The notes under the pieces were generated by a model that was not told the DNA's origin, did no database searches, and was given only the letters and a program-made list of their open reading frames with translations. A program made the position numbers and the translations under genes. From NCBI GenBank assembly GCA_030586555.1, contig JAURAC010000004.1, positions 37,800-101,799 of the forward strand: a stretch of 64,000 nt of DNA, given 5' to 3'. Within the stretch, counting starts at the first letter, position 1, and each line of letters starts with the position of its first letter. This document shows positions 5,813 to 42,592 of this stretch, piece after piece. This DNA is from Candidatus Subterrananammoxibius californiae. GTDB taxonomy: Bacteria > Planctomycetota > Brocadiia > Brocadiales > Subterrananammoxibiaceae.

Positions 5813-6280
5813 TTATTTCTTTTTATCTCCGGTTTTTATTAAAGGTTTCACTTCCTCTACAAAATCAGAAACATCTTTAAATTCCCTGTAAACGGAGGCA
5901 AACCTGACGTATGCCACATGGTCAAGCTCCTTGAGCTTTTTCATGATATATTCGCCAATGTATTTGGTGCTTACTTCCCTATCAAACTTATCATGTATGT
6001 GACGCTCAAGTTCGGTAACAATATCCTCGAGGGTTTCCGTAGATACAGGTCTCTTCTCACATGCTCTCACTAACCCAGCCATTACCTTACTGCGGTCAAA
6101 GCTAACCCTTCTGCCATCCTTTTTGATTACGCGTATAGGGCTTTCCTCAATCCTTTCGTGTGTCGTATAGCGCCTTCCACACTTGTAGCATTCACGTCTC
6201 CGCTTAACGATAAGACCGTCGCCAGACGTCCTGGAATTGACCACCTTATCATTGTTTTCCTTGCAAAAGGGACATCTCAT
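5813..6280 (-). CDS. nrdR: Transcriptional repressor NrdR
   Basis: MRCPFCKENNDKVVNSRTSGDGLIVKRRRECYKCGRRYTTHERIEE zinc ribbon plus ATP-cone, 155 aa. Confidence 0.95.
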   Translation of the reverse strand: MRCPFCKENNDKVVNSRTSGDGLIVKRRRECYKCGRRYTTHERIEESPIRVIKKDGRRVSFDRSKVMAGLVRACEKRPVSTETLEDIVTELERHIHDKFDREVSTKYIGEYIMKKLKELDHVAYVRFASVYREFKDVSDFVEEVKPLIKTGDKKK

Positions 6281-25596: not shown

Positions 25597-26292
25597 CTAC
25601 TGATGTAAGTAAGGTTGCGCAACAATCCTGTGCCGGGCGCCAAGCTGGGGTGTTACGGGTTTGGGAACGTATCCAATATCTCCTTTTGATTCCGACGTCC
25701 ATAGAGCTGTATAGCTCGTCGCGCTCCAAACCGGGACAATGTTAAACTCCAGATGCACTATGCCACCTGTACCTGGAAGAAAGTCACTTAGAAGATAACC
25801 GCCGAGCGGTTTAAATATAGCTCCACCGGCACCGATATTTACGCCAATAATTCCATCAATGGTTAAACCTCCAAAATTTCCGCCTAAGGCAAGTGCTCCG
25901 ACGCTATCCAATATCTCCACATCGAATCCTGTAGGGTTAGGATTAGCGCCGCCCGTAGTGACAAAGTCAGCATGTATCAGTCCCGGGGTAACAGTAACAC
26001 CACTTAGGGTCGCAAAGATTGATACACTTCCACCAACAATAAGGGGACCAGCAATAGTGCCTGGTGTAAAGGAGACTATACTACCAGTCATTGAAAGCAA
26101 TCCAGTTGCAGGTGTAAATGTGGTGATTCCATTTACGGGGCCCGAGGGAGAAGAGTCCCATCGTATAATAGGCGCTGTTATTGTGGGTGAGATAGTATGT
26201 GCAAAAAGATAGGTAAAAGGGGTGATATAACTCAAGGCAATAATTGCCGTGAGCGCTGAGATAAGCCGCAGTGATTTGTAAACAACCCGCAT
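25597..26292 (-). CDS. Paralogue of the PEP-CTERM protein 26513..27277 with a frameshifted, lost PEP-CTERM anchor
   Basis: Roughly 70% identical by eye to the neighbour over the mature region. It ends VPKPVTPQLGARHRIVAQPYLHQ*, but a +1 frame gives ...SLAPGTGLLRN..., matching the neighbour's ALLGTGLFGF. ATG at 26292 preferred over TTG at 26307. Confidence 0.6.
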   Translation of the reverse strand: MRVVYKSLRLISALTAIIALSYITPFTYLFAHTISPTITAPIIRWDSSPSGPVNGITTFTPATGLLSMTGSIVSFTPGTIAGPLIVGGSVSIFATLSGVTVTPGLIHADFVTTGGANPNPTGFDVEILDSVGALALGGNFGGLTIDGIIGVNIGAGGAIFKPLGGYLLSDFLPGTGGIVHLEFNIVPVWSATSYTALWTSESKGDIGYVPKPVTPQLGARHRIVAQPYLHQ

Positions 26293-26351
26293 GTTAGTTA
26301 ATATCAAGTAATATTCCTTTTTGTTTCACAAAGGCTCTATCTTTTTGGAAC

Positions 26352-26367
26352 AGCGAGCATTTTGCCA
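26352..26367 (-). promoter_or_regulatory. Sigma-54 promoter candidate
   Basis: The minus strand reads TGGCAAAATGCTCGCT, with correct GG-N10-GC spacing, ~60 nt upstream of the ATG at 26292. Confidence 0.45.
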
Positions 26368-26512
26368 GAGTAAGCCGTCTTTGTCAAGGAAAATTTCCAC
26401 AATTTCTTTATCGCTTAAAAGGTTACCCCCTTGTCAAAAAAAAGTTTCAGAGTTTTAAAACAATTTACCCAAAGTCCATAAATTACCAATGGCTTTGTTA
26501 TAAAAGGCAGGC

Positions 26513-27277
26513 TCAATTTTTTCTCCAGAACCTTCGGCTGAGCTCAGGTCGAAGCCTTCTGTAACCAAGGAAGCCAAACAACCCTGTGCCAAGCAAGGCT
26601 ATTGTTATAGGTTCCGGAACAGGTCCGACATCCCCTTTTGATTCTGAAGTCCATGCAGCGGTGAAACTTGTTGCGCTCCACGTTGGGACGGTGCTAAACT
26701 CTAAATGCACTATGCCAGCTGGGCCTGGAATAAAGTCGGGTAGAAGATAACCCCCAAGCGGCGTGAATGTTGCTCCACCAGCAGCGATGCCTGAGCCAAA
26801 GATTCCATCAATGGTTAAACCTCCAAAATTCCCGCCTAAGGCAAGCGCTCCGACACTATCCAATATCTCCACATCGAACCCTGTAGGATTCGGATTAACG
26901 CCACCAGTAGTGCCAAAATCAGCATGTACGAACCCTGGAAATACAGTAGTGCCCGTCAGGGATGCAAAGATTGATACACTTCCACCAACCATAAGGGGAC
27001 CAGGAATAGTATTTGGTATAAAGGAAACGACATTACCGCTCATTGAAAGTATCCCAGTTCCTGGCGCTCCTGGTGTAAATGTTGTGACTCCATTTACTGG
27101 ACCTGGAGGGGACGCATCCCCGGAAGAGTCCCATCCTATATCAGGCAATCCTATTGTTGGTGATATAGTATGTGCATGAAGACGTGTAGAAAGAACGGGA
27201 AAACTCAAGGCTATAATTGCCGAGAGTAGTGTAATGAACAATAACGGCCTCCCCAAAAAATATTTATTACTTCCCAT
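26513..27277 (-). CDS. PEP-CTERM sorting-domain secreted protein
   Basis: Signal peptide, and a C-terminal VPEPITIALLGTGLFGFLGYRRLR (PEP motif, TM helix and basic cluster). Confidence 0.8.
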   Translation of the reverse strand: MGSNKYFLGRPLLFITLLSAIIALSFPVLSTRLHAHTISPTIGLPDIGWDSSGDASPPGPVNGVTTFTPGAPGTGILSMSGNVVSFIPNTIPGPLMVGGSVSIFASLTGTTVFPGFVHADFGTTGGVNPNPTGFDVEILDSVGALALGGNFGGLTIDGIFGSGIAAGGATFTPLGGYLLPDFIPGPAGIVHLEFSTVPTWSATSFTAAWTSESKGDVGPVPEPITIALLGTGLFGFLGYRRLRPELSRRFWRKN

Positions 27278-28013
27278 AAGAAATTCCTCCCTCTGTTAAG
27301 ATGAAATTGTCGCTTCCAGTTCCGCTTCTATTTGTACGAAAGAGTTTCAGTAATTTTGAGGCAATCTTACCCATAGTCCACACGGATATCTTAAAGTCCA
27401 AATACAGGCACATCTTCTTTATATAAATGCGGTCGTACGATAGCTTTTTCTTTACATCATCAATGGTTTCGTCATATTTGAGCCGTACCTGTGCAAGACC
27501 TGTGAGTCCGGGTTTAACCATGAGCCGATTCGTATAGCCCTGCATCTGCATCTTGAATGAATCAACAAAGAAAGGTCTTTCAGGTCTTGGGCCAATAAAA
27601 CTCATATCCCCTTTAATGATATTAATAAATTGAGGAATTTCATCCAGGTGCAAAGCCCTTATGTAATAACCCAGTTTTGTGACCCTTGGGTCTTCTGGTT
27701 TTGCCCATACAGGTCCTATTCCGTCCTCGGCATTTACATGCATCGTTCTAAACTTAATTATTCTAAAGGGTTTGCCCTCCTTGCCAATCCTTGTTTGCAT
27801 ATAAAATACTGGTCCAGGAGACGTTAGCTTTACAAGAACGCTCAGTGTTAGTATTAGCGGTGTACTAATTATTAATGCAATAAAGGATAAGGCGATGTCA
27901 AACAATCGCTTTATCAAGGCATATCGGGTACGTATTAGTCTCACAATCAGACTCGAAATGCCATTTCTTGAAAAGGTTATTCCTGTTGCTTCTCGTGCTT
28001 CCAATAGTAACAT
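27267..28013 (-). CDS. Polyprenyl-phosphate sugar phosphotransferase (bacterial sugar transferase family, EPS initiating enzyme)
   Basis: KRLFDIALSFIALIISTPL...SPGPVFYMQTRIGKEGKPFRIIKFRTM...DEIPQFINIIKGDMSFIGPRP...GLTGLAQV are the classic WbaP/EpsL-type C-domain motifs. Confidence 0.85.
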   Translation of the reverse strand: MLLLEAREATGITFSRNGISSLIVRLIRTRYALIKRLFDIALSFIALIISTPLILTLSVLVKLTSPGPVFYMQTRIGKEGKPFRIIKFRTMHVNAEDGIGPVWAKPEDPRVTKLGYYIRALHLDEIPQFINIIKGDMSFIGPRPERPFFVDSFKMQMQGYTNRLMVKPGLTGLAQVRLKYDETIDDVKKKLSYDRIYIKKMCLYLDFKISVWTMGKIASKLLKLFRTNRSGTGSDNFILTEGGISYGK

Positions 28014-28106
28014 TCTCAGTTAATCCTCCGGTGGAATCCCACCCCGCCTCATGCCGCTCCTGATTCCTAAACCTTCAGGAACAGGTTTAGTCAGGGGTAG
28101 CAAAAA

Positions 28107-28484
28107 TTAATAAAAACCATTAACAGTGCAAAGCATCATATCCGTCTTCTCACTAAACATTAAACCAACTCCCCATTTATCGCCTGCTTTTTCCTTTCTC
28201 ACAACAACTGCGTTAGCAAACAGCCAGAGATGTTGAGAGGAATAAGTAGTTGAGTCGTAACTTGCATGAACATAAATCGGGATATTTTGTCCCACGTGGC
28301 ACAGCTCAACATTCTTTGTTTCCAGCTCAAGATATGCCCCTCCAGTAGATATGTTTTTTGTGTACGCCTTTCCCGTTGGTAACATTATCGGGAGGGTCAG
28401 GTTTAGCCTTCTATTAGCCCTCCTATCGCTATTTGCGCTTGTCCATCTTTTTTCATTGATATCCTTAGCCAATCGAGTAGACAT
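28107..28484 (-). CDS. PilZ domain protein (c-di-GMP receptor)
   Basis: RRANRR (RxxxR) and NISTGGAYLE (D/NxSxxG) PilZ motifs, 125 aa. Starts 2 nt after the deacetylase gene stop. Confidence 0.7.
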   Translation of the reverse strand: MSTRLAKDINEKRWTSANSDRRANRRLNLTLPIMLPTGKAYTKNISTGGAYLELETKNVELCHVGQNIPIYVHASYDSTTYSSQHLWLFANAVVVRKEKAGDKWGVGLMFSEKTDMMLCTVNGFY

Positions 28485-28486
28485 TT

Positions 28487-29437
28487 CTACTTAGCTATCA
28501 TAGCAGAGCTTGAACCGTAATAAAGTTTTAAAGCATCTCTTTCTGCGAAACCGCAGTCATCAACAAAGGTAAGCCGATGGTCAGTGTAACACCCGATTAC
28601 AGACTGTATAGTAGAGAATTTAAAGTCAGACAATAATCTCCTGAGTTTACTCTCAGTTTTAGATATGTTTCCGTAATGCCTTAACCTTGTAACCCAATCC
28701 ACCTCGACACGAGGTTGGTCTGCGTCTAACTCCCAGGGATGAAGGTAAATAATTGCAGGATAGCCTTGCTTATTGATTCTTCTGATACCCCATTTCATAA
28801 AAGTGTAAGGCAACAACCTTAAGTATCCTCCCCCTGCAATGGGAAACCTTCTGCCAAAAGCCTTTGTAGTTGACAAAGGAACCTCGATAAGCTCATCCAT
28901 TTCACCCAGCTTAATCAGATGGAGAAATGGGTTCGCATTGGGCATACCGTATCTGTCATGGTACTGAATGGGGAAAATGCTCGAATCATATTGGTATCCC
29001 TCTTCTAATAATATTTTTAGCGTCCAGCGTGTTTTGTTTGTAATTGAGAAACTCGGCGCCCTGTAACCATTAACCTTGCTGCCTGTAATTTCTTCGAGGA
29101 TACGCTTGCTGCGAGCTACATCCATTCGGAATGAATAAGGGTTTTGGTCGTAGATTAGCTGGTGCGCATATCCATGAGATGCAATTTCGTGACCCTTTTC
29201 AAAAATCTCCTTTACCAGTTCAGGAATGCGTTCTGCTATCCACCCGAGGACGAAGAAGGTTGCTTTTGTATTATATTCATCCAGGATTGATAGTATTTTT
29301 TGTGTATTTTCTACTACCCGCAGTTTATAGTTATTCCATGCCTTGTAGGGTATGATTGATGCGAAATTTGAAACCTGGAAATAATCCTCAACATCAATCG
29401 TAATGGCATTAACAAATTTTTCTTTTTTACTAATCAT
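28487..29437 (-). CDS. Polysaccharide deacetylase, PEP-CTERM/exosortase-locus type
   Basis: NAITIDVEDYFQV, ATFFVLGWIAER and EIASHGYAH motifs of the NodB-like deacetylase with a DUF3473-like C-terminal part. Confidence 0.8.
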   Translation of the reverse strand: MISKKEKFVNAITIDVEDYFQVSNFASIIPYKAWNNYKLRVVENTQKILSILDEYNTKATFFVLGWIAERIPELVKEIFEKGHEIASHGYAHQLIYDQNPYSFRMDVARSKRILEEITGSKVNGYRAPSFSITNKTRWTLKILLEEGYQYDSSIFPIQYHDRYGMPNANPFLHLIKLGEMDELIEVPLSTTKAFGRRFPIAGGGYLRLLPYTFMKWGIRRINKQGYPAIIYLHPWELDADQPRVEVDWVTRLRHYGNISKTESKLRRLLSDFKFSTIQSVIGCYTDHRLTFVDDCGFAERDALKLYYGSSSAMIAK

Positions 29438-29456
29438 TTTCTAATTAATCCCCGCT

Positions 29457-29678
29457 TCAGGCAACACGGTCTGAAGGTTGATTGTTCCTCTGCATATCTT
29501 CTGGTGTTACTTGTGGGGTATAGGTCTGCTCTATTTGCCCATCCGGATTTTTTTTAACTGACAAATCTGCGTCAGGCGCAACGGTACTTGACCATATTCC
29601 CACCATTAAACCTGCAAATAGCAGTATTACAATATAAAGATTCTTAAACAATTGTTGTGAATCCTCTAAAAGTGTCAA
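29457..29678 (-). CDS. Small single-TM protein (hypothetical; TTG start)
   Basis: 73-aa ORF with one hydrophobic helix (IVILLFAGLMVGIW). Only a TTG start is available, so support is weak. Confidence 0.3.
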   Translation of the reverse strand: MTLLEDSQQLFKNLYIVILLFAGLMVGIWSSTVAPDADLSVKKNPDGQIEQTYTPQVTPEDMQRNNQPSDRVA

Positions 29679-29710
29679 GGGCGTATGCCATACGCCCCTA
29701 CATAAAAATC

Positions 29711-30391
29711 TTACGACTTCTTTAGAAATTTCCTTCCTTTGTATCCAAGAAGGCTTACAATTCCCATGCTTAGAAGGGCAATGGTTGTTGGTTCAGGGAC
29801 AGGCGTTCCCTCCGCATCATGACTTAAGGGGGCTTTTTCTTCCCAATCACCGTCATGATCTAATGTATAAGCATCAAAATGAACCGCGGTGGAACCATAC
29901 ATTGTTACAGAGAAATTTTTTGCTTCACCATACCAGGTGCAATCACCTTCAAAACCCGGCTCCGTGTTGCATACACTTCCAGGAACGTTTGAAAAGCTGC
30001 CCACATTGACTTGCAAATAGTGGGCGTCAAATATACCATGGTCTGGGAAATCGTCCGGTTTACCCCAGGTAAAAGCAGAAGCTGTGTAATCAGTGCCAGC
30101 AAAGTTTATAATGTTACCAGCAGGAAGGGTGTCAAATTCTCCAAACCCCGTAAGCGCCACCGATACAAATACGCCCGTATCACCTGGTTGCGGGTGGTTA
30201 TGATTTGCGCTGATGACTTGCAAGGTGAAGGGGTTCCCTGGAGTAAATGTGTAAACCCATGTATCACTGACAGTATCATAAGTACCGCCTGGGGTATAAA
30301 GTTGTAAATCTGGTACAGCAGAAGCATTTGTAATCCACTGCAACGTCACAGCCACAAACAAACATAGTGATATTATAATTTTCCTAACCAT
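29711..30391 (-). CDS. PEP-CTERM sorting-domain secreted protein
   Basis: GGAGG RBS, a signal peptide, and a C-terminal VPEPTTIALLSMGIVSLLGYKGRKFLKK. Confidence 0.8.
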   Translation of the reverse strand: MVRKIIISLCLFVAVTLQWITNASAVPDLQLYTPGGTYDTVSDTWVYTFTPGNPFTLQVISANHNHPQPGDTGVFVSVALTGFGEFDTLPAGNIINFAGTDYTASAFTWGKPDDFPDHGIFDAHYLQVNVGSFSNVPGSVCNTEPGFEGDCTWYGEAKNFSVTMYGSTAVHFDAYTLDHDGDWEEKAPLSHDAEGTPVPEPTTIALLSMGIVSLLGYKGRKFLKKS

Positions 30392-30760: not shown

Positions 30761-33700
30761 TTAATCGCATGTTATAACATTAGTACCACCTGCGAAGCTA
30801 TTAAAGGGGGTTAGGGTAAAGAGATTAAGGCCCTCAGGCGTCCCGTTATCTTTATACCCTTTTACGCTTCCGCCATTATATGACTGGGTGGCAATAATCT
30901 CTTCGTAATTATCGCTGTCAATATCGCTCATAGTCAAGTTGACACCATTTGTAGAATAATCAAATGGGGTATCACTGAAGACCGTACTCGGTGTAAATGC
31001 CTTGCTGTATGTGTATGCCCGGACGCTTCTACCGTTAGAAGCCTGTGCAACAACAACCTCATCGCTCGTATCATAAGCCGTAAACTTACCAGTAGCTATG
31101 TTTATACCACCTTTAAATGTTTTGCCAAACGGTTGGTTTTTAACAACAAGAATTGCCCTGCGTGTTCTACTATACGTGTATCCCATGACGGTTCCACCGC
31201 CTGACGCCTGCGATGCCATTAGCTCGTAATTACCGTTCTCATTAATATCGCCTGCCGCTATATTAATTCCACCCTTGAAGCTTCTGCCAAAGGGCGTAAT
31301 GGTAAGGTATAAACCAAAGGTTGAGTTAAATGTGTATTTATAAACCTTGAGGGCGCCGCCGCCTCTTGCCTGTGCAACTATTATTTCTGCCCTTTTATCA
31401 CCATCGTAATCTCCAGCTATTATATTAACGCCAGTCATCTCATAGAAGGGTTTAATCGAAAACACTACCTGCCCTGTAAGGGTTCCATCATGTTTGTATA
31501 CCTTTATTGTTCCCTGGGAAGATGCCTGTGCCACAAGTATTTCACTGATATTGTCACCATCAATATCCCCACAGGCAACGTTAATCCCCCCGGCAAACGA
31601 ATCGCCGAAAGGTTTAACGTCAAAGATCAGTTCTCCGCTATGATTGTACGCCTTGACTTCTCCACCCTTATACGCCTGTGCCATTACGATTTCATAAGCA
31701 CCGTCTCCATTAATATCACCCCTTGCCAGATGGATGCCACCGGTAAATGTGTCTCCAAATGGGTACGTATCTAATAAAGATTTCTGAACTAACCTACCAT
31801 CGTAGTTAAGCGCCTTAATCATGCCGCCGTTAGACGCCTGTGCAATAACCAACTGTGTTCCCGGGGTAGGGTCCTCTCGACTCGTTGGGTTGGTACCATT
31901 CTTTATTTCTTCGCCGTCCAGTATACCATCGCCATCGGTATCTGGATTAGTTGGGTCGGTACCGTATGTATATTCTTCAAGCGCAGTAAGCCCGTCGTTA
32001 TCGAAATCTGAGGCGGCATCGTTTGGGTTTTTATGATTGAGACCGTACTTTGCTTCCCAATTATTAGGTATCCCATCGCCGTCAAGGTCATTATTACTTG
32101 TAGGGGCGGTTGTGGTTGTAGTAGAGGTCGTTGTAGTGGTTGAAGTAGTTGTTGGCGCCAGTGTAGTAGTTGGAACAGTCGTTGTGGTAGTCAGAACTGT
32201 AGTTGTTGGTGCCAGCGTTGTAGTCGGAACAGTCGTCGTAGTGGTTAGAACTGTAGTTGTCGGTGCCAGTGTGGTAGTTGGGACGGTTGTCGTAGTGGTT
32301 AGAACTGTAGTTGTTGGCGCCAGTGTGGTAGTCGGGATAGTCGTTGTGGTGGTCGGAATTGTGGTTGTTGGCGTCAGTGCGGTTGTGAAAACAAGCGTTC
32401 CTTTACCTGTGCGTTCTAACACTGTAATACCAGGAGAAAGATTACCAACGCCTGCTGAGATTGTAATGGTCTTGGCAGTTCCAGCGCTTACTAAGGTGAT
32501 GTCATATTTTAATGCAGGAGAAAGCAAATTGGGGTCGAGGTCAAAGAGAAAATGCTTACCATTAGCTGTTAGATTCACGCTGTAGGTTATATTACCGTTG
32601 ATTATTGCGCCTTGTGGGTCGGAGCTGAAGAGGACAACCTTGTTCTCGGCACTGTCCTTTATATGTGCGCCGACCATGTTGGCGGTAAGCATATTGCCAT
32701 CAACCTGGGATACACGCACGGTTTCAGGCATAGAGGTAACGGTTGCATCTGTTGGAAAAAGGACGTTTAAAAAGATGTCTTCCTTCTGGCCTGAAATATC
32801 CTGTTCCAGTCTCCATCCTTTACGGCCTTCAAAGGAAGAATCGGATGTATCTGCAGGACTGCCCGCTTCCGGGTTCCAGCTTCTATCATTTCTCCAGAAG
32901 AAGAAGCCCTCGCCACCCCTTTTTCTATAGGTTGCACCATCGGGCAAAAGTGATTTAACAAAGAGCCTGCCGCCAGAAGGGTCTGAATCAATATAGAGGT
33001 TATTAAAATTGGTTTGAGACCATGTGGTTGACCCATCTTGAGAGGATGTGTCAGTTAACGGAGTACCTGAGATTGTTGGCTCCTTCACCGTATGGAGGTA
33101 CCACCTTTTTACAAAGTTTGGCTTGGCAGCAGTAATCCTGTCGAGGATAACAAGATATTTTTTGTCTAAGAATGTAAGGGCTCTCTGGAAGTTTGTGAGG
33201 CGGTCAGGATGGTAAGCCTTAGAACCATCACCGAGGGCATAGTCATAATTGTTTTTAGTCTCAAATTTTGTTATGTCGCCCCTATCAAAATATTGCGCTC
33301 CTTTGTAGTGGCTTGATAATATTGTATTGATTGCTTCATTTACATAGTCTCCAGCCTCGGGGTTATTCTGGTCATAATAGACATAATTAGGATGTGCATT
33401 ATCAGGGTGTACTGAATAGTACTGATAAAGTTCCTGCCCTTGATCCATAGAAATGCTGGGGTCTGAAACGGTAACGGAATTAACTGCAACGGTTGGCTTG
33501 CCATAATTCATCTGGAACGTATAATTAACCCAGGAGCCAGTAACAGAGTCCTTTCCCCCCGAACCTTGATTATTATTGTTCATAATGGCAAGGTCGCCAC
33601 TGCGATAAATACTGAAGGCATTAACGTTATATACCTGTTTTGATGTAAACCAATCGCCAGAGGTAAAGGCAACAAGGGTGTCATTTTTTGTCCAACCACT

Positions 33701-34921
33701 CCTGAAGAAGACCCAGCCTGCATCAAGGCCCTGAATAGGAGCGGTTCCATCGGCATTATACCCCTGTGCATAGAACGCTAATGGCAGGGTATTATAGTTG
33801 GTTCCTGGTTTCGAGGGGTCATAAAAAATTATCCACCTGTACTGTTCACAATTATTATACCACGGCTCCACTATTGGCTTCTTAAACAAATCATTAGCTA
33901 TATATTGAGCCACTCCCGTGGTATCCTTCTGTGATAAAACTTCGATGGGGTACCACCCAGTAAATGCGTAATGCTCATAGCTAAGCATTCCAAACGGCAC
34001 CCACCTATCCACATACATTTTCCAAGCAAAAAGCCTTGTGATAAGATTATCTTGTAAATACCGTGATGTACTCCAGAGATTTTCACCCGTTGCCTTATCC
34101 CATGCATAAATTTCCAGAGCAAATAGCCTCGTGCCTATATTGTCATAACCTCCGTCAGGGTTTACTCCACCTCCAACCATATTGGTAAAAGGTATCTTTT
34201 TTGTTGTTAAGAATGTCTTTATTTGATTTAGTTTGGTTTGTGCGAGTGAATTGTCGGCATTTCCATTCAGGCTTGTCTCGTTCCAAATAACAATAGCGGC
34301 GAACGTCCACTCCTCAGATGGCAGGTTGCTCATCATGGTGTGCCAGTCATCCGATGGTCTGCCTTTCCACCACTCGTTATAATCGGCAGGGTCGTTAACA
34401 TCCCGCTGTATCGCATAGGAGGAGGTCACCAATTTATTGCCAAGGGTTATGCGGTCTTGCGGGGATAAGCCATTGTAAATCCAATCATAGGCAAGCGCAA
34501 AGCTTGAGTTTTGATATCCTATGTAATCATTAGGATTTGTATTTTCTAAGACCTGTTTGACCCCATTAACGTAGAAACTGCTGCTATCAGGATGAAGATA
34601 ACTCTCTATTAAATAAACAAACGTAGCGCTAACCACTCTAACCCGTGCGCTTTCTGAGGTAGGCCCTTGGATATATTGCCAACTCCAATTATTAGAGATG
34701 GCGCTATCTACCTCTTGCTTCATCGTCATATATCTTGGGTATAAAGGGTCGGTTGGTTCATCAACCTTTGCTGCTAAGGCAGGGATTTCAGCCTTTGTAA
34801 TGAATATTCTGGGATGCTCACCCTTAGCAAATGGTAGGGTTGCTGCAAACGCATCTAATTCGAGGAATAAAGCTGATACTAATGTAAAGCATATTATTAA
34901 GGTTTTATAATAGTTTTTCAT
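30761..34921 (-). CDS. Giant secreted surface protein: large N-terminal region, Thr/Pro repeat linker, thrombospondin type-3 Ca-binding repeats and a 7-blade FG-GAP/VCBS propeller
   Basis: 1386 aa with a signal peptide. The N-terminal region is possibly heparinase II/III-like (tentative). The linker has 54-nt repeats coding [43 protein letters not shown] and [12 protein letters not shown] are TSP3-like. There are seven GDI(N/D)GDGxxEIxxAQAxxGGxxK(A/V)Y blades. Confidence 0.8.
32154..32380. repeat. 54-nt tandem repeat, ~4.2 copies, inside the giant CDS (Thr/Pro linker)
   Basis: The unit ggcgccagtgtagtagttggaacagtcgttgtggtagtcagaactgtagttgtt repeats with a few substitutions. Confidence 0.9.
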
Positions 34922-34924
34922 CGT

Positions 34925-35017
34925 ATTTCGGCAGCCCCGACGCCTTCGACGAATCTGTAGGCCGGTAGCTTTGCTCCCTATTCTTTCGAGATAGTTCGCC
35001 TTTATCGGTTACGTGTT
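34925..35017 (-). promoter_or_regulatory. Cyclic-di-GMP-I (GEMM-I) riboswitch-like leader of the giant protein gene
   Basis: Minus-strand RNA: cacguaaccgauaaaGGCGAACuaucucGAAAgaauagGGAGCAAAGCuaCCGGCCuacagauucgucgaaGGCgUCGGGGCUGCCgaaauacgAUG. Compare Vc2: ...aGGGCAAACCauucGAAAgaguGGGACGCAAAGCCuCCGGCCuaaacc...GGUAGCGGGGUUACCg. It shares the GNRA-capped P1 hairpin, the GCAAAGC junction and the CCGG...CGGGGyUrCC P2/closing segments. Confidence 0.7.
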
Positions 35018-35231
35018 TTCAAATTTTCTAAAGAGCTGGGTGACTACTGCACCCATTCCCACGCTCAGCGCGGTGGAAGCTCCGAGCTTCCGAGGTGTAA
35101 GAGAGCAATCTCCATGCCATCAGTACACAATATTACCTATAAGTTGATGTTGCTAAAGAAGGAGGTCCAATGGTAAAATGATGTAGGAGTTAACTCTTTA
35201 TAATTAAAGGAGTTCCACCATTAGGTAGGAG

Positions 35232-35258
35232 TGGTGTGGATAAACTTGTTTGTCCGTG
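35232..35258. repeat. Partial copy of the 31-nt hairpin element (ggtgtggataaacttgtttgtccgtgc)
   Basis: Read directly; intergenic. Confidence 0.6.
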
Positions 35259-35314
35259 CTCAAGCCACACTGGAGGGTAGAAATGAAGGTGTTCAACTTT
35301 TGGGGGATTTTTAT

Positions 35315-35368
35315 GTACATTTTTGTACTTTAGTAATTTTTAAAATTAATAAACGTACAAAAATGTAC
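35315..35368. repeat. 14-bp perfect inverted repeat gtacatttttgtac / gtacaaaaatgtac with a 26-nt spacer
   Basis: Read directly. Lies ~75 nt downstream of the stop of 35442..37121. AT-rich stem, so it is not a canonical terminator. Confidence 0.5.
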
Positions 35369-35441
35369 AGATAGCCCTGCAGTTAAATGGGGTTTATTTT
35401 TATTTATTGGAAGTTTTTGTCAGATTAGGACATCTTTTTGT

Positions 35442-37121
35442 TTACTTTACAATCTCCCAAAAGACTTCGTCTTCAATTATGCAGAAAAAGATTTTTCCGT
35501 ATTGTGAGAAGAATGCGCGTAATTCATGGCGATTGGGATGTGGATATTCCGTTTCACTCCACCTTGACTCTGGCACATCTTTTTCGGTTATTAATCTATT
35601 ATGAATGAAGATTCTACCTCCATTGTCCCGGCATTTTTTTATTGCTCTGTTCAATCTTTCATCCCATCCAGTAGAGCCGTTTAAAACTATATCTAAATTT
35701 AAATGGATGCAATTTCGGTGGGCATAAAGTAGAAATTTATTTACACTCCCCACGTCTTGGCCCCACACTATAACCAGGTCGTTGGGATTCGTTTTCTGTC
35801 CAAGCGATTTTGCTATTTTCCAATCTTTATCGTTGGCAATATTACGTTCCGACACGAAAAATTCTGAAAAATTACAAGTGAATAATACTACAGGTATGAC
35901 AATGAAAATTGTTTTTGTAAGCCTCAAAGGTTGCAGTGAGACATTAATGTGTGATATAGTAACGGCTATAACCAATATCGCTGCTGGAAGGGCAGGTAAC
36001 ATTCTTTCTAAAGCTGCACCGTCAAAGACCATGCCAAAACAGAAAAATGATAATATCCATACACCAAGGATTAAAAGTGCAATTTTTAAGTCCTTCTTTA
36101 CCGTTTTCCACCTCATAATCAGGTATGATACACTTAAAAGACAAGCCGTCCATACTGCAAGAAATTTACCCGTTTGAAGGATAAGATTTGTTCCTGTCAT
36201 GCCTAAGGCAGATTCGCCATGGCGAACAAGGTTGAAACCGCCTGTAATCCACCCCCTAACAGTTGACCCCATGTCAGGTATTGCTACAAATGCGTTTGCT
36301 ACTCCATAAAGTGCTCTAAGGAAATTCAAAACACTTACCTGTATGGGACTACCTTGTGACGTTGACTTCAGAGCGATTAATAAATCACCGTAACTTTTGC
36401 ATTCATTAATAAATATGACCACAAGGAGTAAAGGTATAATTAAAAATAAGAGAAGTCCAAGAGAATAAATAAAGGTTAATGTAAATCTTTTGCTATAATT
36501 CAAGTGTTGTGGGATTAGTATGATTCCAATTACAATTGCCGGAAAGCATAGAACCACAGGTAGCCAGAAGAGGGCTGATAGGGCGCTAATTAAAGCAATT
36601 GCAAGGACAAATAAAAGCTTTTGCCGATGTTCCGAGAATTCCTGTAATTTAAATAGAAGTATGAATGCAAAAATCATAAGAAAAGTAGAAGGAATATATG
36701 CGCTGCCAGTTCCAGAATAAGCCCAATAGCTATGTGAGAAAGCCAACATTGATGCTGAAAATAAGGCTACCCTTGTATCCTTTAAAAGGTTATAGACCAA
36801 ACAAAAGAAGGCGCTTACACCAATTGCCCCAAAAAAGGCGCTTTCAAATTGCAAGATGGTTACAGCGCGCCCTGTATAGCCAAAGACCTGGAAAAACTTA
36901 TAAATTAGCCAACCCAATGGTCTATGAAACAGGTGCCATTGTTCAGCCCCCTTTATTGCACGTCCTGTTTCTATATCGTTAGCGTAAAAGAATTGGTCGC
37001 CAAGTCTGAAATTAAAAGATTGGGTATAAAGTATAAAGAAAATAACGAACATGCTTAAGGGATAAATGAACTGAGGGGTGGAATGTCTTTCAATAAATTC
37101 AAACAAATTATTTTTATTCAT
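35442..37121 (-). CDS. Large polytopic membrane protein, possibly a GT-C-type glycosyltransferase (tentative)
   Basis: 559 aa with about 12 hydrophobic segments followed by a ~130-aa soluble C-terminal domain. Architecture resembles ArnT/PMT-like enzymes. I recognise no unambiguous motif. Confidence 0.5.
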   Translation of the reverse strand: MNKNNLFEFIERHSTPQFIYPLSMFVIFFILYTQSFNFRLGDQFFYANDIETGRAIKGAEQWHLFHRPLGWLIYKFFQVFGYTGRAVTILQFESAFFGAIGVSAFFCLVYNLLKDTRVALFSASMLAFSHSYWAYSGTGSAYIPSTFLMIFAFILLFKLQEFSEHRQKLLFVLAIALISALSALFWLPVVLCFPAIVIGIILIPQHLNYSKRFTLTFIYSLGLLLFLIIPLLLVVIFINECKSYGDLLIALKSTSQGSPIQVSVLNFLRALYGVANAFVAIPDMGSTVRGWITGGFNLVRHGESALGMTGTNLILQTGKFLAVWTACLLSVSYLIMRWKTVKKDLKIALLILGVWILSFFCFGMVFDGAALERMLPALPAAILVIAVTISHINVSLQPLRLTKTIFIVIPVVLFTCNFSEFFVSERNIANDKDWKIAKSLGQKTNPNDLVIVWGQDVGSVNKFLLYAHRNCIHLNLDIVLNGSTGWDERLNRAIKKCRDNGGRIFIHNRLITEKDVPESRWSETEYPHPNRHELRAFFSQYGKIFFCIIEDEVFWEIVK

Positions 37122-38890
37122 GGAAGATTGCTGTGTTCTATTTTAAGTAGCAGGTTTCCTTCTACCTGCAAAATTTCCTTAAAGTTTAACACATGAAAGA
37201 CCTCTAACTCTCTTAGATTCTGTAGGAACGGCTTTTTGTTGCTTTCTATAAGAACATATCTTACATTTTCTTTTTGAATCGTATCTATAATATCTTGCGT
37301 TGCAGGGACTTTTGGGAATTGGACACAACTCCTTTCAGAAAACACGCCGAAAACAACCGGGCCGTCACACATTACAACGTCATCTTTATTGGAATTTTGC
37401 CTCAGCCATTGTCCCATTTCTTGAAAGTATAGCTTACCAACGGTTCTCAGTCCGTAGTCCTGATGTTTAAGATATGTGCGATAGGCTATCATTGACAGGC
37501 TGTGGAAAATAAGGATGGCAAACGCAATTTTCAATATTCGTGACTCGTAACCCGTAACTCGTGGCTCATAAAAGGCAAAAATAAAACTTGTCGTTAACAC
37601 GAAGAAATAAAATATAACAAACACAAAGGTTACTATCATTTGATAATATCCCATTAATCCACCCTCGTAATATTGTGTTTCTGATAGCGGGATATAGACA
37701 AGAAAGAAGCCACAAAATAAGAGTGAAAAAAATATAGCCTTCCACCAACTACTGCTCCCCCCTCTGGATAAAAGGTTTTCTTTGATTAATGATAAGGTCT
37801 TTAAAAGATAGAAAAAGACAAGCGGGGCAACAGGATACCAAAATCTTACATAATCATAAGGCCAGAGAAGATGAATTCCAATATAGAAGGCTAAATACCA
37901 CTCAACAACGGTACTCTTTTTTATAAGGCTATATAAAAATCCTATAACAAATAGTAAAGATATAAGGTACCCCCAGAACCGTAAGCTATGTGGAAACTTT
38001 GGAATGCTTGTAACGAGTGAGGCTATATGCGTTGTATTGTTGATAAGATTGCGTTTTATTACAGTAAAGGTATATGATGAGAGGGGTTGTCCAACTTCTT
38101 TATCCGTTATTGCCCTTTGAGCGAACTCTTGTTCATAGCTCCACGAAGCTTCTAAATTTTCAAGTAACTTTCCTCTGACGTACCAGGCTCCGATAGCAAT
38201 GCCACAAATAATCAGTATCGTACCCAAACGCTTCAAGGCGTCTTTCTGCCTTTTTATTAATGGCTTGCAAGCAAATATGCAAACTGCCGCTAATAATGCA
38301 ATACCCACTAATCTTGTAAAGTACGCAGCCAATATAAGGACTGAAAGCAGTATAGCATTTCTAATAACATTATTATCCTCTTTTAGACTTTTTTGGGCAA
38401 CAATTAGCGCCAATAAAGAGAAAAGAAGATACGGTATTTCAGAGACAATGATATTACAATTAAAAGACCAGAAAAAATACGATATCCCTGTAAGTAAGAA
38501 GGCTGTATCTGCCAGTTTTCCGTTATAGAAACGTCTTAAAAAAACAAAACAAACAAAGAGGGCAAACACCGCAATCGTAATTAGAAATATTTGAATAATA
38601 AGGAAATTATAACCAAAGATTCCCACAACAGGAGCAAGTAACAATGGAAAACCAAAAGGATACAGGGTATGAGGTATCCCGAGAATCTTGTAACCGTCGA
38701 GTGTTATGAGGGATTTTGCAAGTGTAAGATAGTAAAAAGCGTCAATATTCCAGATTTCACAACCGTTTTTCAATGTGCAAAGGTAAAAAAAGAAGACCGT
38801 TAAACAAAATAACACGGCTTTTCTTTGTGTTAAGATGAAATTGGTTTTTGAATTGTTCATTACATATTCCTCAGACAAACTGTTTCCCAT
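37118..38890 (-). CDS. Large polytopic membrane protein, possibly a GT-C (family 39/83-like) glycosyltransferase (tentative)
   Basis: 590 aa with many TM segments and an acidic first-loop segment (WNIDAFYY). The soluble C-terminal domain has a 4-nt overlap with the downstream gene. Confidence 0.5.
   Translation of the reverse strand: MGNSLSEEYVMNNSKTNFILTQRKAVLFCLTVFFFYLCTLKNGCEIWNIDAFYYLTLAKSLITLDGYKILGIPHTLYPFGFPLLLAPVVGIFGYNFLIIQIFLITIAVFALFVCFVFLRRFYNGKLADTAFLLTGISYFFWSFNCNIIVSEIPYLLFSLLALIVAQKSLKEDNNVIRNAILLSVLILAAYFTRLVGIALLAAVCIFACKPLIKRQKDALKRLGTILIICGIAIGAWYVRGKLLENLEASWSYEQEFAQRAITDKEVGQPLSSYTFTVIKRNLINNTTHIASLVTSIPKFPHSLRFWGYLISLLFVIGFLYSLIKKSTVVEWYLAFYIGIHLLWPYDYVRFWYPVAPLVFFYLLKTLSLIKENLLSRGGSSSWWKAIFFSLLFCGFFLVYIPLSETQYYEGGLMGYYQMIVTFVFVIFYFFVLTTSFIFAFYEPRVTGYESRILKIAFAILIFHSLSMIAYRTYLKHQDYGLRTVGKLYFQEMGQWLRQNSNKDDVVMCDGPVVFGVFSERSCVQFPKVPATQDIIDTIQKENVRYVLIESNKKPFLQNLRELEVFHVLNFKEILQVEGNLLLKIEHSNLP
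37538..37565. repeat. Heptamer tandem repeat, 4 copies (tcgtgac tcgtaac ccgtaac tcgtggc), inside a membrane protein CDS
   Basis: Read directly. Encodes ...EPRVTGYESR... in 37118..38890. Confidence 0.85.
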
Positions 38891-39634: not shown

Positions 39635-42592
39635 TTATCCTTCTATAATCTCCCTCTCCTTCTCCGTTATCCCGTACAATTCATAGACCAGCTCGTCAAT
39701 CCTTTCATCCGCCACAGCAATCTCACTCTCAACAGCCTCCCGCTCCGATGATGCGGGCAAGGCTTGCTTCTTCCTGTTCAGCTCCAGCATGCGTTCAACC
39801 AATCCAACCAATCTGTCATGCATAGCTCTTTCCTTCAGGTCGTCAAAATTAATGGTGCGGATGGGGAGTTTCCCCAAATATTCAAATATAAGTTGATACC
39901 CATTTTGAATTTGTGTACAAAAATTGGAAATTAAAAGCCATCCAAGCATTGAATTTAGTATCCCTAATAGGTATTTATCATCCTTGGGCATAATCCAAAC
40001 GGCATTGTTTGCATATGTTCCAGCCGAATCAAAGGTAAACGCAGGTTTTACTTGGAAAACCAAGTACATTATCTTCGGCTTTTCGAATTCAGCATAGTAA
40101 TCAATAGCATCCTGTATTTCATACCATTGGTAGGAGCCTGGCTTTCTTCCTTTCCAATCGTCGCCTTGCCAGTCCTTTGGCTTTGGCATAAGCTTTTCTT
40201 TAAATTGCTTCAAATGCCTTTCAATCGCAGGATACATTTTTATATTAACGCCACGCCGAGTAAATATAAGGTATTTATTGCTTTGATGCGGTTGATAACG
40301 CTTAATGTCCCGTCCTATCAAAAAGGGCTTAATTAATTCTACACTTTTTGGGTCTTCAGCAATCAACCTATTTCGTGTCTCTCGGTCAATAACAAATGCT
40401 TTATTGAATCCCGTAAGAACCCCTCGATATATTTTCCCTTTAACGTAGTCACCCAAAGGAATACCTACTGCTTGCAATTTAGATAATAGTTGTTGTATGC
40501 GTTCATTAGCTAAAGACCAACCTTTAGCACTTAAAGAAGTTTGTTTAACGCTATAACTGTTTGTTTGAACATAAGATTCTAAGTTATCAAAATCAAGTGT
40601 CTTAACCTGAGTAACTTTGAAAATAGACCGCGGAGAATCATTGCGAATTCGGATAATACAAGGATATGTGGTAGCACCTTGAAAAACAGGCAAATCTCCA
40701 AAATCGATTATTTCTTCTATCCGTTTTTGCTTCATCCAATAACGTAATGGTTCGCCATAGTTAGTACGCATCCATTTATTGGCTACAATATAGCTAAAGA
40801 TTCCGCCTGGCTTTAACAGCGACACTCCACGTTCAATAAAATATGAATAAAGATCCGCCATACCATGAAACACATTATATTTTTGTTGAAAGTACTCCTT
40901 AAACGCCTCCAACATTTCTTGCCTTACATAAGGTGGATTCCCTATCACACAATCAAAGCCGCCCTTTGCCATTATCTCACCGAAGCCTACCGATTTGGAG
41001 TTCCAGTCAAATGGGTTTATTCGCTCCCTTTCTTCGTCAGGAAATAGTTTTCCCTGGTCGAAAATGTCGTAGCCTATGAGGGAGTTACCGCACTTGATGT
41101 TGTTTGAAAGGATGGGCAATAAGCCCTGTTTTTGGGGAAGACTGCGTTCACCCTCCAGTTCCTTCAGGTAAAGGCTCATCATGGTAATCTCAACCGCCTG
41201 AGGGTCTATGTCCACCCCAAAGATATTGTTCTTGAGTATGCGTCCTTTCTTAATTATAGATAGCCTGTAGTTATCCTCCGCATCCCTGATTAAATCAGGA
41301 AAGAGAGGATGGGTTTCTGCTTCCTTTGGGTGTTCGCGATAATATTGGATGTGATAGTCAATAAGGTATTGAAACGCACCCAGTAAAAAGGAACCCGAAC
41401 CGCAGGCAGGGTCTAAAAGCCTGAGCTTTTCTATCTGTTTTGGGGTCTTACCTGTTATTAGCTTGCCCACCGTATTTTCAACTATGTACTTTACTATGTA
41501 TTGGGGCGTATAATATACTCCGCCTGCCTTGCGCACCTCGGGCTTTTCTTCAACCTTTACCCTGCCCCCGGGCGTTACCCTTATGGTATTTCCCAGATAC
41601 CGCTCATATATACTGCCGAGGAGTTCTACGCCAATGATGTCAAACAGATAAGGGCTGTTGGGGAAATACAGTTCTTCAATAATATTTGCCAGGCGGTGGG
41701 AATCTACCTCATACTGCTCGCAGGCATGGGGTTTGAAGATGTCTCCATTGAGGTCTGCATTTATCTCCCTGAAGAGGTTATTTAAATGATACTGGATGGG
41801 TCTCCTCTTTCCTTCAGCCTTCCATAGTTCGGTTATCTCAAAGAGGGTTCTTGGCTTTATGATATTCCTATCCTCGGCAATGCGGATAAAAACGATGCGG
41901 TCTAACAAGCGCTGAACTACCTCATTTAATGTCCTTACGCTGATACTACTGTTATGCCTATAAACGTCCTTTGCCAGTTCCTCACGCCAGAGGCTCATAT
42001 CCTGGAGGAATTTCTTATCCACAGGGATGCGCTGTCTCTTGCTACTTGCATCCTTCAAGAGAAGTCTATCCAGTGAACCCTGAGCTACTGCTTCTTTGGA
42101 GAGGAGGAGAAGTTTTTCTATATTATTAAGGTAGTCGGTATATTTGAGGTCAATAATGATGCCCTGAAGCGGATTTCTTTTATCGGGAGGTAGGGAGGCA
42201 TCGAAAAGCTTGAGTTCCTCAAAGTCGGTGAGGACTACGATAAAGACCTCTTTGGTATTCCAGGCATAGGATTTAGCTTGAAGTATATGCTTGACGGTAT
42301 CCAAGGACTCGGAAGGGGCTTTTGCCTCTACGAAGAATTTGCTGATGCCATTCAGTCGGAAGTTATAATCTGGTCTGCCTGTGGTTTCTCCCTTTTCAAC
42401 TAAAACCTCCCGTTCAAAAGGGGATAGTTTTTTCTCGTTTGAGATGTCCCAGTCCAGAGTCTCAAAGAAGGGGTCTATAAAGTCCTGCCTAACTTGGGCT
42501 TCTATGTAGTCTTTAGAAAGGTAATGATGCTTGTCCCTCTCAAATTTTTCTACTAAGTTTTGTATATGTTCTTTGACCTCAGATGTGTTCAT
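39635..42592 (-). CDS. Type IIG/IIL restriction-modification fusion enzyme (PD-(D/E)xK nuclease, gamma-class N6-adenine methyltransferase and TaqI_C-like specificity domain)
   Basis: 985 aa. N-terminal GRPDYNFRL...FVEAKAP (HsdR_N/Mrr-like), LLDPACGSGSFLLGAF (SAM motif I), CVIGNPPYV (motif IV), and GVLTGFNKAFVIDRETR (Eco57I/TaqI C-terminal TRD). Confidence 0.8.
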   Translation of the reverse strand: MNTSEVKEHIQNLVEKFERDKHHYLSKDYIEAQVRQDFIDPFFETLDWDISNEKKLSPFEREVLVEKGETTGRPDYNFRLNGISKFFVEAKAPSESLDTVKHILQAKSYAWNTKEVFIVVLTDFEELKLFDASLPPDKRNPLQGIIIDLKYTDYLNNIEKLLLLSKEAVAQGSLDRLLLKDASSKRQRIPVDKKFLQDMSLWREELAKDVYRHNSSISVRTLNEVVQRLLDRIVFIRIAEDRNIIKPRTLFEITELWKAEGKRRPIQYHLNNLFREINADLNGDIFKPHACEQYEVDSHRLANIIEELYFPNSPYLFDIIGVELLGSIYERYLGNTIRVTPGGRVKVEEKPEVRKAGGVYYTPQYIVKYIVENTVGKLITGKTPKQIEKLRLLDPACGSGSFLLGAFQYLIDYHIQYYREHPKEAETHPLFPDLIRDAEDNYRLSIIKKGRILKNNIFGVDIDPQAVEITMMSLYLKELEGERSLPQKQGLLPILSNNIKCGNSLIGYDIFDQGKLFPDEERERINPFDWNSKSVGFGEIMAKGGFDCVIGNPPYVRQEMLEAFKEYFQQKYNVFHGMADLYSYFIERGVSLLKPGGIFSYIVANKWMRTNYGEPLRYWMKQKRIEEIIDFGDLPVFQGATTYPCIIRIRNDSPRSIFKVTQVKTLDFDNLESYVQTNSYSVKQTSLSAKGWSLANERIQQLLSKLQAVGIPLGDYVKGKIYRGVLTGFNKAFVIDRETRNRLIAEDPKSVELIKPFLIGRDIKRYQPHQSNKYLIFTRRGVNIKMYPAIERHLKQFKEKLMPKPKDWQGDDWKGRKPGSYQWYEIQDAIDYYAEFEKPKIMYLVFQVKPAFTFDSAGTYANNAVWIMPKDDKYLLGILNSMLGWLLISNFCTQIQNGYQLIFEYLGKLPIRTINFDDLKERAMHDRLVGLVERMLELNRKKQALPASSEREAVESEIAVADERIDELVYELYGITEKEREIIEG

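Follow-up and report, generated by a model that had tools for sequence, protein, structure and literature searches.

How a riboswitch can act when almost nothing separates its ligand-binding domain from the start codon of the gene that it precedes, and how such an arrangement comes about, are questions raised by a locus in Candidatus Subterrananammoxibius californiae. The locus lies in a stretch of 64,000 nucleotides (nt) of contig JAURAC010000004.1 (assembly GCA_030586555.1), hereafter called the window, by which we mean that whole stretch. On its minus strand a candidate aptamer for cyclic di-GMP (c-di-GMP), of the class known as c-di-GMP-I or GEMM-I, abuts the AUG of a gene encoding a secreted protein of 1386 amino acids (aa). 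As judged by comparison with the leaders of orthologous genes, the window leader is a known aptamer class in an unusual, derived and platform-less configuration.

A cmscan search of the entire window against 4227 Rfam families at gathering thresholds returned a single match, RF01051 (c-di-GMP-I). It has a score of 54.4 bits, the gathering threshold being 35 (E 7.2e-8), covers the model from position 1 to 87 of 87 without truncation, and ends 5 nt short of the A of the ATG of the 1386-aa open reading frame (ORF); the c-di-GMP-II family (RF01786) has no match anywhere in the window, either at its gathering threshold or at E <= 1. A first-pass annotation made from the letters alone had proposed a GEMM-I aptamer as a 5' regulatory element on this strand, directly before this start codon, and the full-length match agrees with it. 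Its transcription of the minus-strand leader holds on re-reading, and the two hairpins that it drew, one capped by GAAA, are both present in the cmscan structure. The CGUA/UACG closing pairing that it placed 1 nt before the AUG also exists, but it ends at position -1 and so touches the A of the AUG.

Full-length orthologs of the 1386-aa protein are few: a collection of 5.8 billion proteins yielded only two, P0001 and P0004, at 74% and 48% identity respectively in the alignment. The first is encoded in L001 (GCA_040961615.1, a metagenome-assembled genome, or MAG, of Candidatus Brocadiales) and the second in L003. RF01051 matches stand upstream of the same gene in both (52.9 and 57.0 bits), and the recurrence of the aptamer before an orthologous gene in two other genomes puts it well beyond chance. 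L001 is moreover syntenic with the window, the shared order being PRTase, the gene itself, a choice-of-anchor N protein, a DUF3473 deacetylase, a PilZ protein, a sugar transferase and a PEP-CTERM protein. The window and L001 aptamers are 87% identical, against 68% for the preceding stretch of some 390 non-coding nt. The covariation for which the first-pass annotation had looked to orthologous leaders is found among the three: compensatory pairs occur at 41:80 (GC/AU) and at 49:71 and 22:27 (CG/UA), and RNAalifold counts 2 compensatory pairs, a figure of low power with three distinct leader sequences.

Wider searches added no further leaders. Two shorter homologs (P0002 in L004 and P0003 in L005) have no aptamer and lie in a different context, and therefore carry no information on the leader. 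Protein-pattern scans of the genome_contigs (with the alignment of the three orthologs) and of the metagenome_contigs found no relatives, a scan of the genome_contigs for an aptamer-core DNA pattern gave 0 matches, and an exact look-up of the 1386-aa product found it not on record. Eight metagenome_contigs loci did match a 19-nt aptamer-core pattern; none of them has an Rfam match, and we discarded them as chance.

The nucleotides of the binding pocket are in place. In the Vc2 aptamer, G20, A47 and C92 contact c-di-GMP (PMC4744006). The cmscan alignments give a G, an A and a C at the equivalent positions of the window (Table 1), and the same three in L001 and L003. Judged by its covariance-model match and these pocket nucleotides, the window element is a genuine c-di-GMP-I aptamer with a canonical ligand pocket. 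A departure from the class as described is shared by all three leaders: an interhelical C-G pair (C44-G83 in Vc2) is reported to be universally conserved (PMC4744006), and is an A-U pair in the window, L001 and L003 alike, both sides being altered with Watson-Crick pairing retained.

What distinguishes the window from its orthologs lies downstream of the aptamer. The distance from aptamer to start codon is 103 nt in L001 and 120 nt in L003, and in the three-way alignment the window runs from ...GCCGAAAUACG straight into AUGAAAAACUAUU, with the AUG directly after ...GCCGAAAUACG. The segment missing from the window, 103 or 120 nt by reference to L001 or L003, contains in those genomes a terminator, the partner of an antiterminator and a Shine-Dalgarno sequence. 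The window thus has no expression platform, being without any of the three elements that its orthologs all possess, and we found no terminator-like site on the minus strand within 34500-36000. Because the platform is common to the closer (74%) and the more distant (48%) relative, it is ancestral and was lost in the window lineage; the alignment accordingly indicates that the aptamer came to abut the AUG through a loss specific to this lineage and did not evolve there as a translational platform.

The compact junction is not confined to one assembly. The exact product of the gene upstream is found on three further contigs (L015 to L017, from GCA_052360965.1, GCA_052360945.1 and an independent Logan assembly of SRR4343435), and in all three the leader and junction are identical to those of the window. 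Over 2564 nt a separate MAG, L018 (GCA_016198835.1), shows 7 mismatches to the window (99.73% identity); the junction is unchanged in it, and its RF01051 match again scores 54.4 bits. The junction therefore recurs in four assemblies and two strains (99.7% identical) and is real, and the long form of L001 is independently reproduced in L002. The contig of a 97.3%-identical strain (L019) ends at window position 35306, before the aptamer, and gives no help in dating the deletion.

The long-form leaders suggest what was lost. The platform of L001 and L003 consists of a conserved hairpin (CCUAYUYUUUCGAGAAAAGAAUAGRC) with a U-tract, followed by an AGGAGAG Shine-Dalgarno sequence 6-7 nt before the start codon. 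In L001 the terminator (5937-5971; 15 pairs and a U-tract) is called by the terminator scanner, with a folding energy of -18.3 kcal/mol and a z of -4.8. The aptamer segment UCUCGAAAGAAUAGG, which comprises the loop and 3' strand of the GAAA hairpin, is a perfect 15-nt complement of the 5' half of this terminator; L003 has 10+4 complementary nt, where G>A on the aptamer side goes together with C>U in the terminator strand. We folded the nascent transcripts up to the terminator loop, either free or with the aptamer enforced. At this decision point the free minimum free energy (MFE) structure is the antiterminator duplex in both genomes (-43.8 kcal/mol against -24.5 with the aptamer enforced in L001, and -35.3 against -19.1 in L003), and with the aptamer enforced the full terminator forms in L001. 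On these folds the long-form leaders are predicted to be transcriptional OFF switches. In the absence of ligand, the loop and 3' strand of the GAAA hairpin would pair with the 5' half of the terminator and allow read-through; with c-di-GMP bound, the hairpin would be locked in the aptamer, so that the terminator would form and transcription would stop. Under the same logic, mutation of CCUAUUCUUUCGAGA in the L001 leader would mean constitutive termination.

With the terminator and the antiterminator partner both gone, control by termination is lost in the window, and any control that remains must be translational. The deletion of 100-120 nt left the closing helix of the aptamer joined by its 3' strand to the AUG. 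Counted back from that AUG, the C92 equivalent is nucleotide -10, the receptor hairpin has its last paired base at -12, and the closing helix takes up -4 to -1, so that an aptamer locked by c-di-GMP would cover the stretch from -12 to -1 that a 30S subunit must bind, and initiation would be repressed. Occlusion of this kind would retain the ancestral OFF polarity. From the geometry we give translational OFF control by occlusion in the window about an even chance. The fuller proposition is that the deletion converted an OFF switch of the terminator type into a translational one that is minimal and has no platform, the closing helix and ligand pocket of the aptamer having taken the place of the Shine-Dalgarno sequence, and that c-di-GMP now gates initiation directly at an AUG without such a sequence; this we offer tentatively and consider somewhat doubtful. 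The first-pass annotation had likewise suggested direct translational control because the aptamer covers the place of the ribosome-binding site: the geometry permits it, and we draw the same inference, but the arrangement arose by loss of a platform and was not built as a translational one. Initiation without a Shine-Dalgarno sequence is plausible here, since about 42% of 55 likely genes in the window have weak or no such sequence (an anti-Shine-Dalgarno duplex energy weaker than -4 kcal/mol); the first 30 nt of the 1386-aa coding sequence are AU-rich.

Several observations weigh against this scenario, at both its ancestral and its derived end. The L003 hairpin homologous to the L001 terminator is AU-rich, mismatched and weak, and is not called by the terminator scanner, so the OFF logic of the long form rests mainly on L001. 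The L001 platform, in turn, holds two copies of CCUAUUC (5929-5936 and 5942-5948), the first of which is able to base-pair with GAAUAGG of the aptamer without keeping the terminator from forming, as seen in the full-length MFE structure; this copy might act as an anti-antiterminator that blunts or tunes the switch, and no extra copy is present in the L003 platform. In the window, the tetraloop receptor (CUACAG/CGAAGG) departs at two positions from the canonical one of L001 (CUAAAA/CUAUGG). The unconstrained MFE of the window leader (-23.7 kcal/mol) beats that of the aptamer-enforced fold (-20.1 kcal/mol) and itself buries the AUG, so that the start site may be poorly accessible in both states; this MFE is also no more stable than that of shuffled sequences (z -0.1). 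Worth just -2.4 kcal/mol, the outer closing helix is an inheritance, present in L001 with equal duplex energy, and did not arise anew. We considered an extension of it into the AUG by CA/UG pairing and rejected it, as duplexfold does not favor it and the CGUA/UACG core is the inherited part. Finally, the two strains that bear the deletion are almost identical, and post-deletion selection on the aptamer is therefore not visible.

The same near-identity lends some weight to a serious alternative, which we nonetheless think less likely: that the aptamer is a relic, the gene having been uncoupled from c-di-GMP, with an aptamer that is intact only since the deletion is recent and with expression that is constitutive, or weak for lack of a Shine-Dalgarno sequence. 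All three platform elements are lost, the genomes with the deletion (99.7-100% identical) have left no time to see decay or maintenance, the receptor is off the canonical motif at the two positions just mentioned, and the free MFE structure does not form the aptamer; the Bacillus thuringiensis riboswitch Bc1, moreover, provides a precedent for a c-di-GMP-I riboswitch that binds its ligand without regulating (PMC11218506). Against a relic, the aptamer has a score on a par with those of its orthologs, it has 0 mismatched stem pairs against three in L001, and all of its pocket nucleotides are intact; in addition, a ligand-locked aptamer 5 nt from the AUG is, from the geometry, hard to square with unimpeded loading of the 30S subunit.

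A switch of reversed polarity is improbable. Here UUCGUCG (34953-34947), the apical loop of the second hairpin, would pair, in the absence of ligand, with CGAUGAA (34923-34917) and bury the AUG, and c-di-GMP, by folding the aptamer, would break this helix and free the start codon, making a translational ON switch. The loop-AUG helix does appear in both the MFE and the centroid structures, and as a duplex it is worth -6.4 kcal/mol where the outer closing helix has -2.4. When the aptamer is shuffled by dinucleotides, no more than 2% of the shuffles form a helix of at least 7 nt over the AUG, and the loop sequence is specific to the window. Yet when the L001 aptamer was fused in silico to the same tail it too gave a 7-nt helix over the AUG, which means that the pairing arises without selection; because the L001 aptamer yields an equal helix, we rejected the loop-AUG helix as a selected anti-aptamer and do not count it as evidence. 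The overall fold, as noted, is no more stable than shuffles, the bound state would still place the pocket and closing helix over -12 to -1, and comparative support is impossible with a junction sequence identical in L015 to L018.

It is very improbable that the aptamer serves another ligand, whether as a GEMM-Ib element of the 3'3'-cyclic GMP-AMP (cGAMP) type or as a c-di-GMP-I-GGC variant. When the search was run permissively, RF03167 (c-di-GMP-I-GGC), whose closing helix maps onto the inner CG/CG pairs of the window, did rank first in its clan by E-value, but its 49.8 bits fall below its own gathering score of 59. At the distinguishing A47 position the window reads GCAAA, with A, where the RF03167 consensus is GCGAA, with G. 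The G20 equivalent is a G and not the A typical of GEMM-Ib, A20 being the reported mark of cGAMP selectivity. With canonical equivalents of G20, A47 and C92, the element is neither a cGAMP nor a GGC variant, and on these nucleotides we rejected both readings.

That the compact junction is an assembly artefact is scarcely credible: the missing segment does hold a strong hairpin, and a repeat in the downstream gene does break or vary between assemblies (1386 or 1404 aa, with contig ends in L017 and L014), but the identical junction occurs in two NCBI assemblies, an independent Logan assembly and a separate MAG with 7 single-nucleotide differences in 2.5 kb.

Table 1. Coordinates of the aptamer, its parts and the associated genes in the window
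Feature	Position	Strand	Basis or remark
c-di-GMP-I (GEMM-I) aptamer, full length	34927..35010	-	RF01051; same match in L018; orthologous in L001 and L003
Deletion junction, G34922 joined to A34921 of the AUG	34921..34922	-	three-way alignment
G equivalent to Vc2 G20 (ligand contact)	35000	-	model position 11; G also in L001 and L003
A equivalent to Vc2 A47 (ligand contact)	34972	-	model position 38; GGC variant has G
C equivalent to Vc2 C92 (ligand contact)	34931	-	model position 83; -10 from the AUG; C in all three leaders
Interhelical tertiary pair A34975/U34940	34940..34975	-	model positions 35 and 74
GAAA-tetraloop hairpin CUAUCUC-GAAA-GAAUAG	34981..34994	-	cmscan structure line
Second (tetraloop-receptor) hairpin	34933..34971	-	cmscan structure; compensatory pairs
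Closing helix: CG(35007-35006)/CG(34930-34929) and outer CGUA(35013-35010)/UACG(34925-34922)	34922..35013	-	aptamer-enforced fold
Regulated gene (putative), secreted 1386-aa protein	30761..34921	-	ORF; Pfam, NCBIfam and PDB matches
Downstream XrtA/PEP-CTERM exopolysaccharide genes	26513..30391	-	Pfam, NCBIfam; order syntenic in L001

The gene behind the leader starts at the first ATG after an upstream in-frame stop and has an N-terminus resembling a signal peptide. From that end, its product comprises the signal peptide, a heparinase-II-like region, a Thr-rich linker, TSP3 repeats and FG-GAP repeats. The first-pass annotation had described a giant FG-GAP/TSP3 adhesin-like protein, and the repeats are there in Pfam terms (FG-GAP_3 and TSP3_bac); it is, however, not a plain adhesin, as residues ~23-746 resemble heparinase II. 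Heparinase II structures (PDB 2fuq/3e7j) match residues 397-746 (E 1e-17) and, weakly, the N-terminal residues 23-159, and NCBIfam HepB matches at 5e-27. Lyase activity is not assured, since the NHQHQD motif of heparinase II, an enzyme whose catalytic and zinc residues include H406 and H408, aligns to SKQVYN in the window protein, and the N-terminal catalytic Tyr/His are not alignable. The Thr-rich linker is a tandem repeat (residues ~848-935, window ~32100-32380, minus strand). In the otherwise identical assembly L015 the protein has 1404 aa against 1386, and Logan contigs break inside the gene, which indicates either variation in repeat length or uncertainty of assembly.

By its gene content and order, the 1386-aa gene is at the head of an XrtA/PEP-CTERM exopolysaccharide (EPS) locus, with which it may share a transcript. 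Downstream of it follow a choice-of-anchor N/PEP-CTERM protein, an XrtA-system polysaccharide deacetylase (TIGR03006, 392.8 bits, above cutoff), a PilZ protein, a priming sugar transferase and a PEP-CTERM protein. The position of the aptamer before a signal-peptide protein in an EPS locus fits the gene associations described in PMC1950547. The PilZ protein (28107-28484; PF07238, E 5.4e-8) carries the motifs RRANRR and NISTGG. PilZ domains bind c-di-GMP through RxxxR and [D/N]xSxxG motifs, and the presence of both, together with the aptamer, lends sequence support to the earlier suggestion that this locus may sense c-di-GMP at the level of both RNA and protein.

Other features of the surrounding DNA may be recorded here. 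At the end of the EPS cluster (25597-27277, minus strand) stand two tandem paralogous genes of ~77% DNA identity, the second of which (26513-27277) encodes the PEP-CTERM protein. Directly upstream of the leader, at 35442-38890 (minus strand), two large membrane proteins with weak, sub-threshold matches to a TMEM260-like O-mannosyltransferase and an LA_3751-like glycosyltransferase are encoded, which are not found at this position in L001; that they O-glycosylate the Thr-rich linker of the 1386-aa protein is a speculative possibility. Farther upstream (39635-42592, minus strand) is a gene for a 985-aa adenine methyltransferase resembling MmeI/PglX (BREX-type) below threshold, and no other BREX genes were noticed nearby.

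The ~390-nt block immediately upstream of the aptamer (35011-35400, minus strand), conserved in L001 at the 68% given above and in part in L003, is conserved although the genomes have different genes beyond it. Among the candidates for its role are a long 5' untranslated region, promoter and operator DNA, and an RNA of its own; it shows no evident conserved small ORF. Transcription may begin just upstream of 35015 or some 450 nt upstream, in which case the transcript would take in this block. About 300 nt upstream of the aptamer it contains a perfect 15-nt inverted repeat on the minus strand, TGTACATTTTTGTAC (35369-35355) and GTACAAAAATGTACA (35328-35314), which is kept in L001 with three differences. 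As these are all G.U-compatible on the sense strand, a hairpin in the RNA is the better reading of the repeat than an operator in the DNA. A match to mir-308 at 35315-35368 is weak and at chance level, and we dismissed it as merely an AU-rich hairpin. Two further hairpins or palindromes lie just upstream of the aptamer on the minus strand: CCGCGC-UGA-GCGUGG (35073-35059), which reads CCACGC-CGA-GCGUGG in L001, the A>G change retaining a G.U pair, and GGAAGCUC-G-GAGCUUCC (35091-35075), which is present in the window only.

The planctomycete, anammox-like origin that the first-pass annotation supposed for this DNA has indirect support from protein clusters: at 90% identity or above, proteins of the window fall into clusters with proteins from MAGs labelled Planctomycetes or Planctomycetota bacterium, and the window dprA gene is 89% identical in DNA to that of L001, whose DprA clusters with a 'Candidatus Brocadiales bacterium' protein. 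Its suggestion that such riboswitches were new to the Planctomycetota fails, on the other hand, as GEMM elements were reported to be common in Planctomycetes in 2007. No publication dealing with a c-di-GMP riboswitch in anammox bacteria in particular came to light, although coverage of the literature was incomplete and this is not proof of absence.

The window case leaves knowledge of the aptamer class itself unchanged; its interest lies elsewhere. In anammox bacteria c-di-GMP has been tied to aggregation mostly by correlation, and we know of no genetic tools for bacteria of this order. The window leader offers a concrete and testable c-di-GMP target within it, in an RNA of ~100 nt. The two natural alleles, aptamer with terminator and Shine-Dalgarno sequence on the one hand and aptamer fused to the AUG on the other, amount to a small natural experiment on the loss or rewiring of a platform. 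If the proposed history is true, the turnover of an expression platform has been caught in the act, with the long leader of L001 and the short leader of the window directly comparable, and c-di-GMP would be linked to the turnover of granule EPS in an anammox bacterium through a matrix-remodeling heparinase-like protein. The heparinase-II-like product and the predicted ancestral OFF polarity suggest that high c-di-GMP would shut off an enzyme that modifies the matrix at a time when PilZ and the EPS genes are active, in a logic like that of zmpI in Clostridioides difficile.

Comparison with known systems places the window leader among them. Vc2, from the leader of Vibrio cholerae tfoY, is the archetype of RF01051 and belongs to the same class, with a GAAA-tetraloop hairpin, a receptor hairpin and a pocket of the G20/A47/C92 type. 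It differs in its interhelical C44-G83 pair, which is A-U in the window, and in its tetraloop receptor, the window having a non-canonical one. Translational repression by Vc2 has been reported, according to the passage of PMC11705072 in which Inuzuka 2018 is cited. The ribosome-binding site that Vc2 masks lies far from its aptamer, whereas the window AUG is 5 nt from the aptamer and has no Shine-Dalgarno sequence. Class I OFF switches are known from C. difficile, where Cd1 in the flgB leader causes premature termination upon binding c-di-GMP and the class I riboswitch of zmpI/PPEP-1 negatively regulates a secreted enzyme that releases surface adhesins (PMC6366702). The OFF logic of Cd1 and zmpI is the logic predicted for L001 and L003, and the biology of zmpI would be analogous too if the heparinase-like protein remodels the matrix. 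The antiterminator strand of L001 and L003 is the GAAA hairpin itself, however, and not the 3' strand of the closing helix; the window has lost its terminator, and the phylum is another. In Bc1 a class I aptamer binds its ligand, yet the expression platform renders it unresponsive in vivo (PMC11218506). Bc1 has an over-long platform with two terminators, whereas the window has no platform. The SAM-III/SMK box and preQ1-II riboswitches contain the initiation region within the aptamer, and folding induced by the ligand hides the ribosome-binding region. They resemble the translational OFF switch that we propose for the window in having no separate expression platform; in them, though, the Shine-Dalgarno sequence is an integral and conserved part of the aptamer, whereas in the window a recent deletion has brought the aptamer against an AUG that has none.

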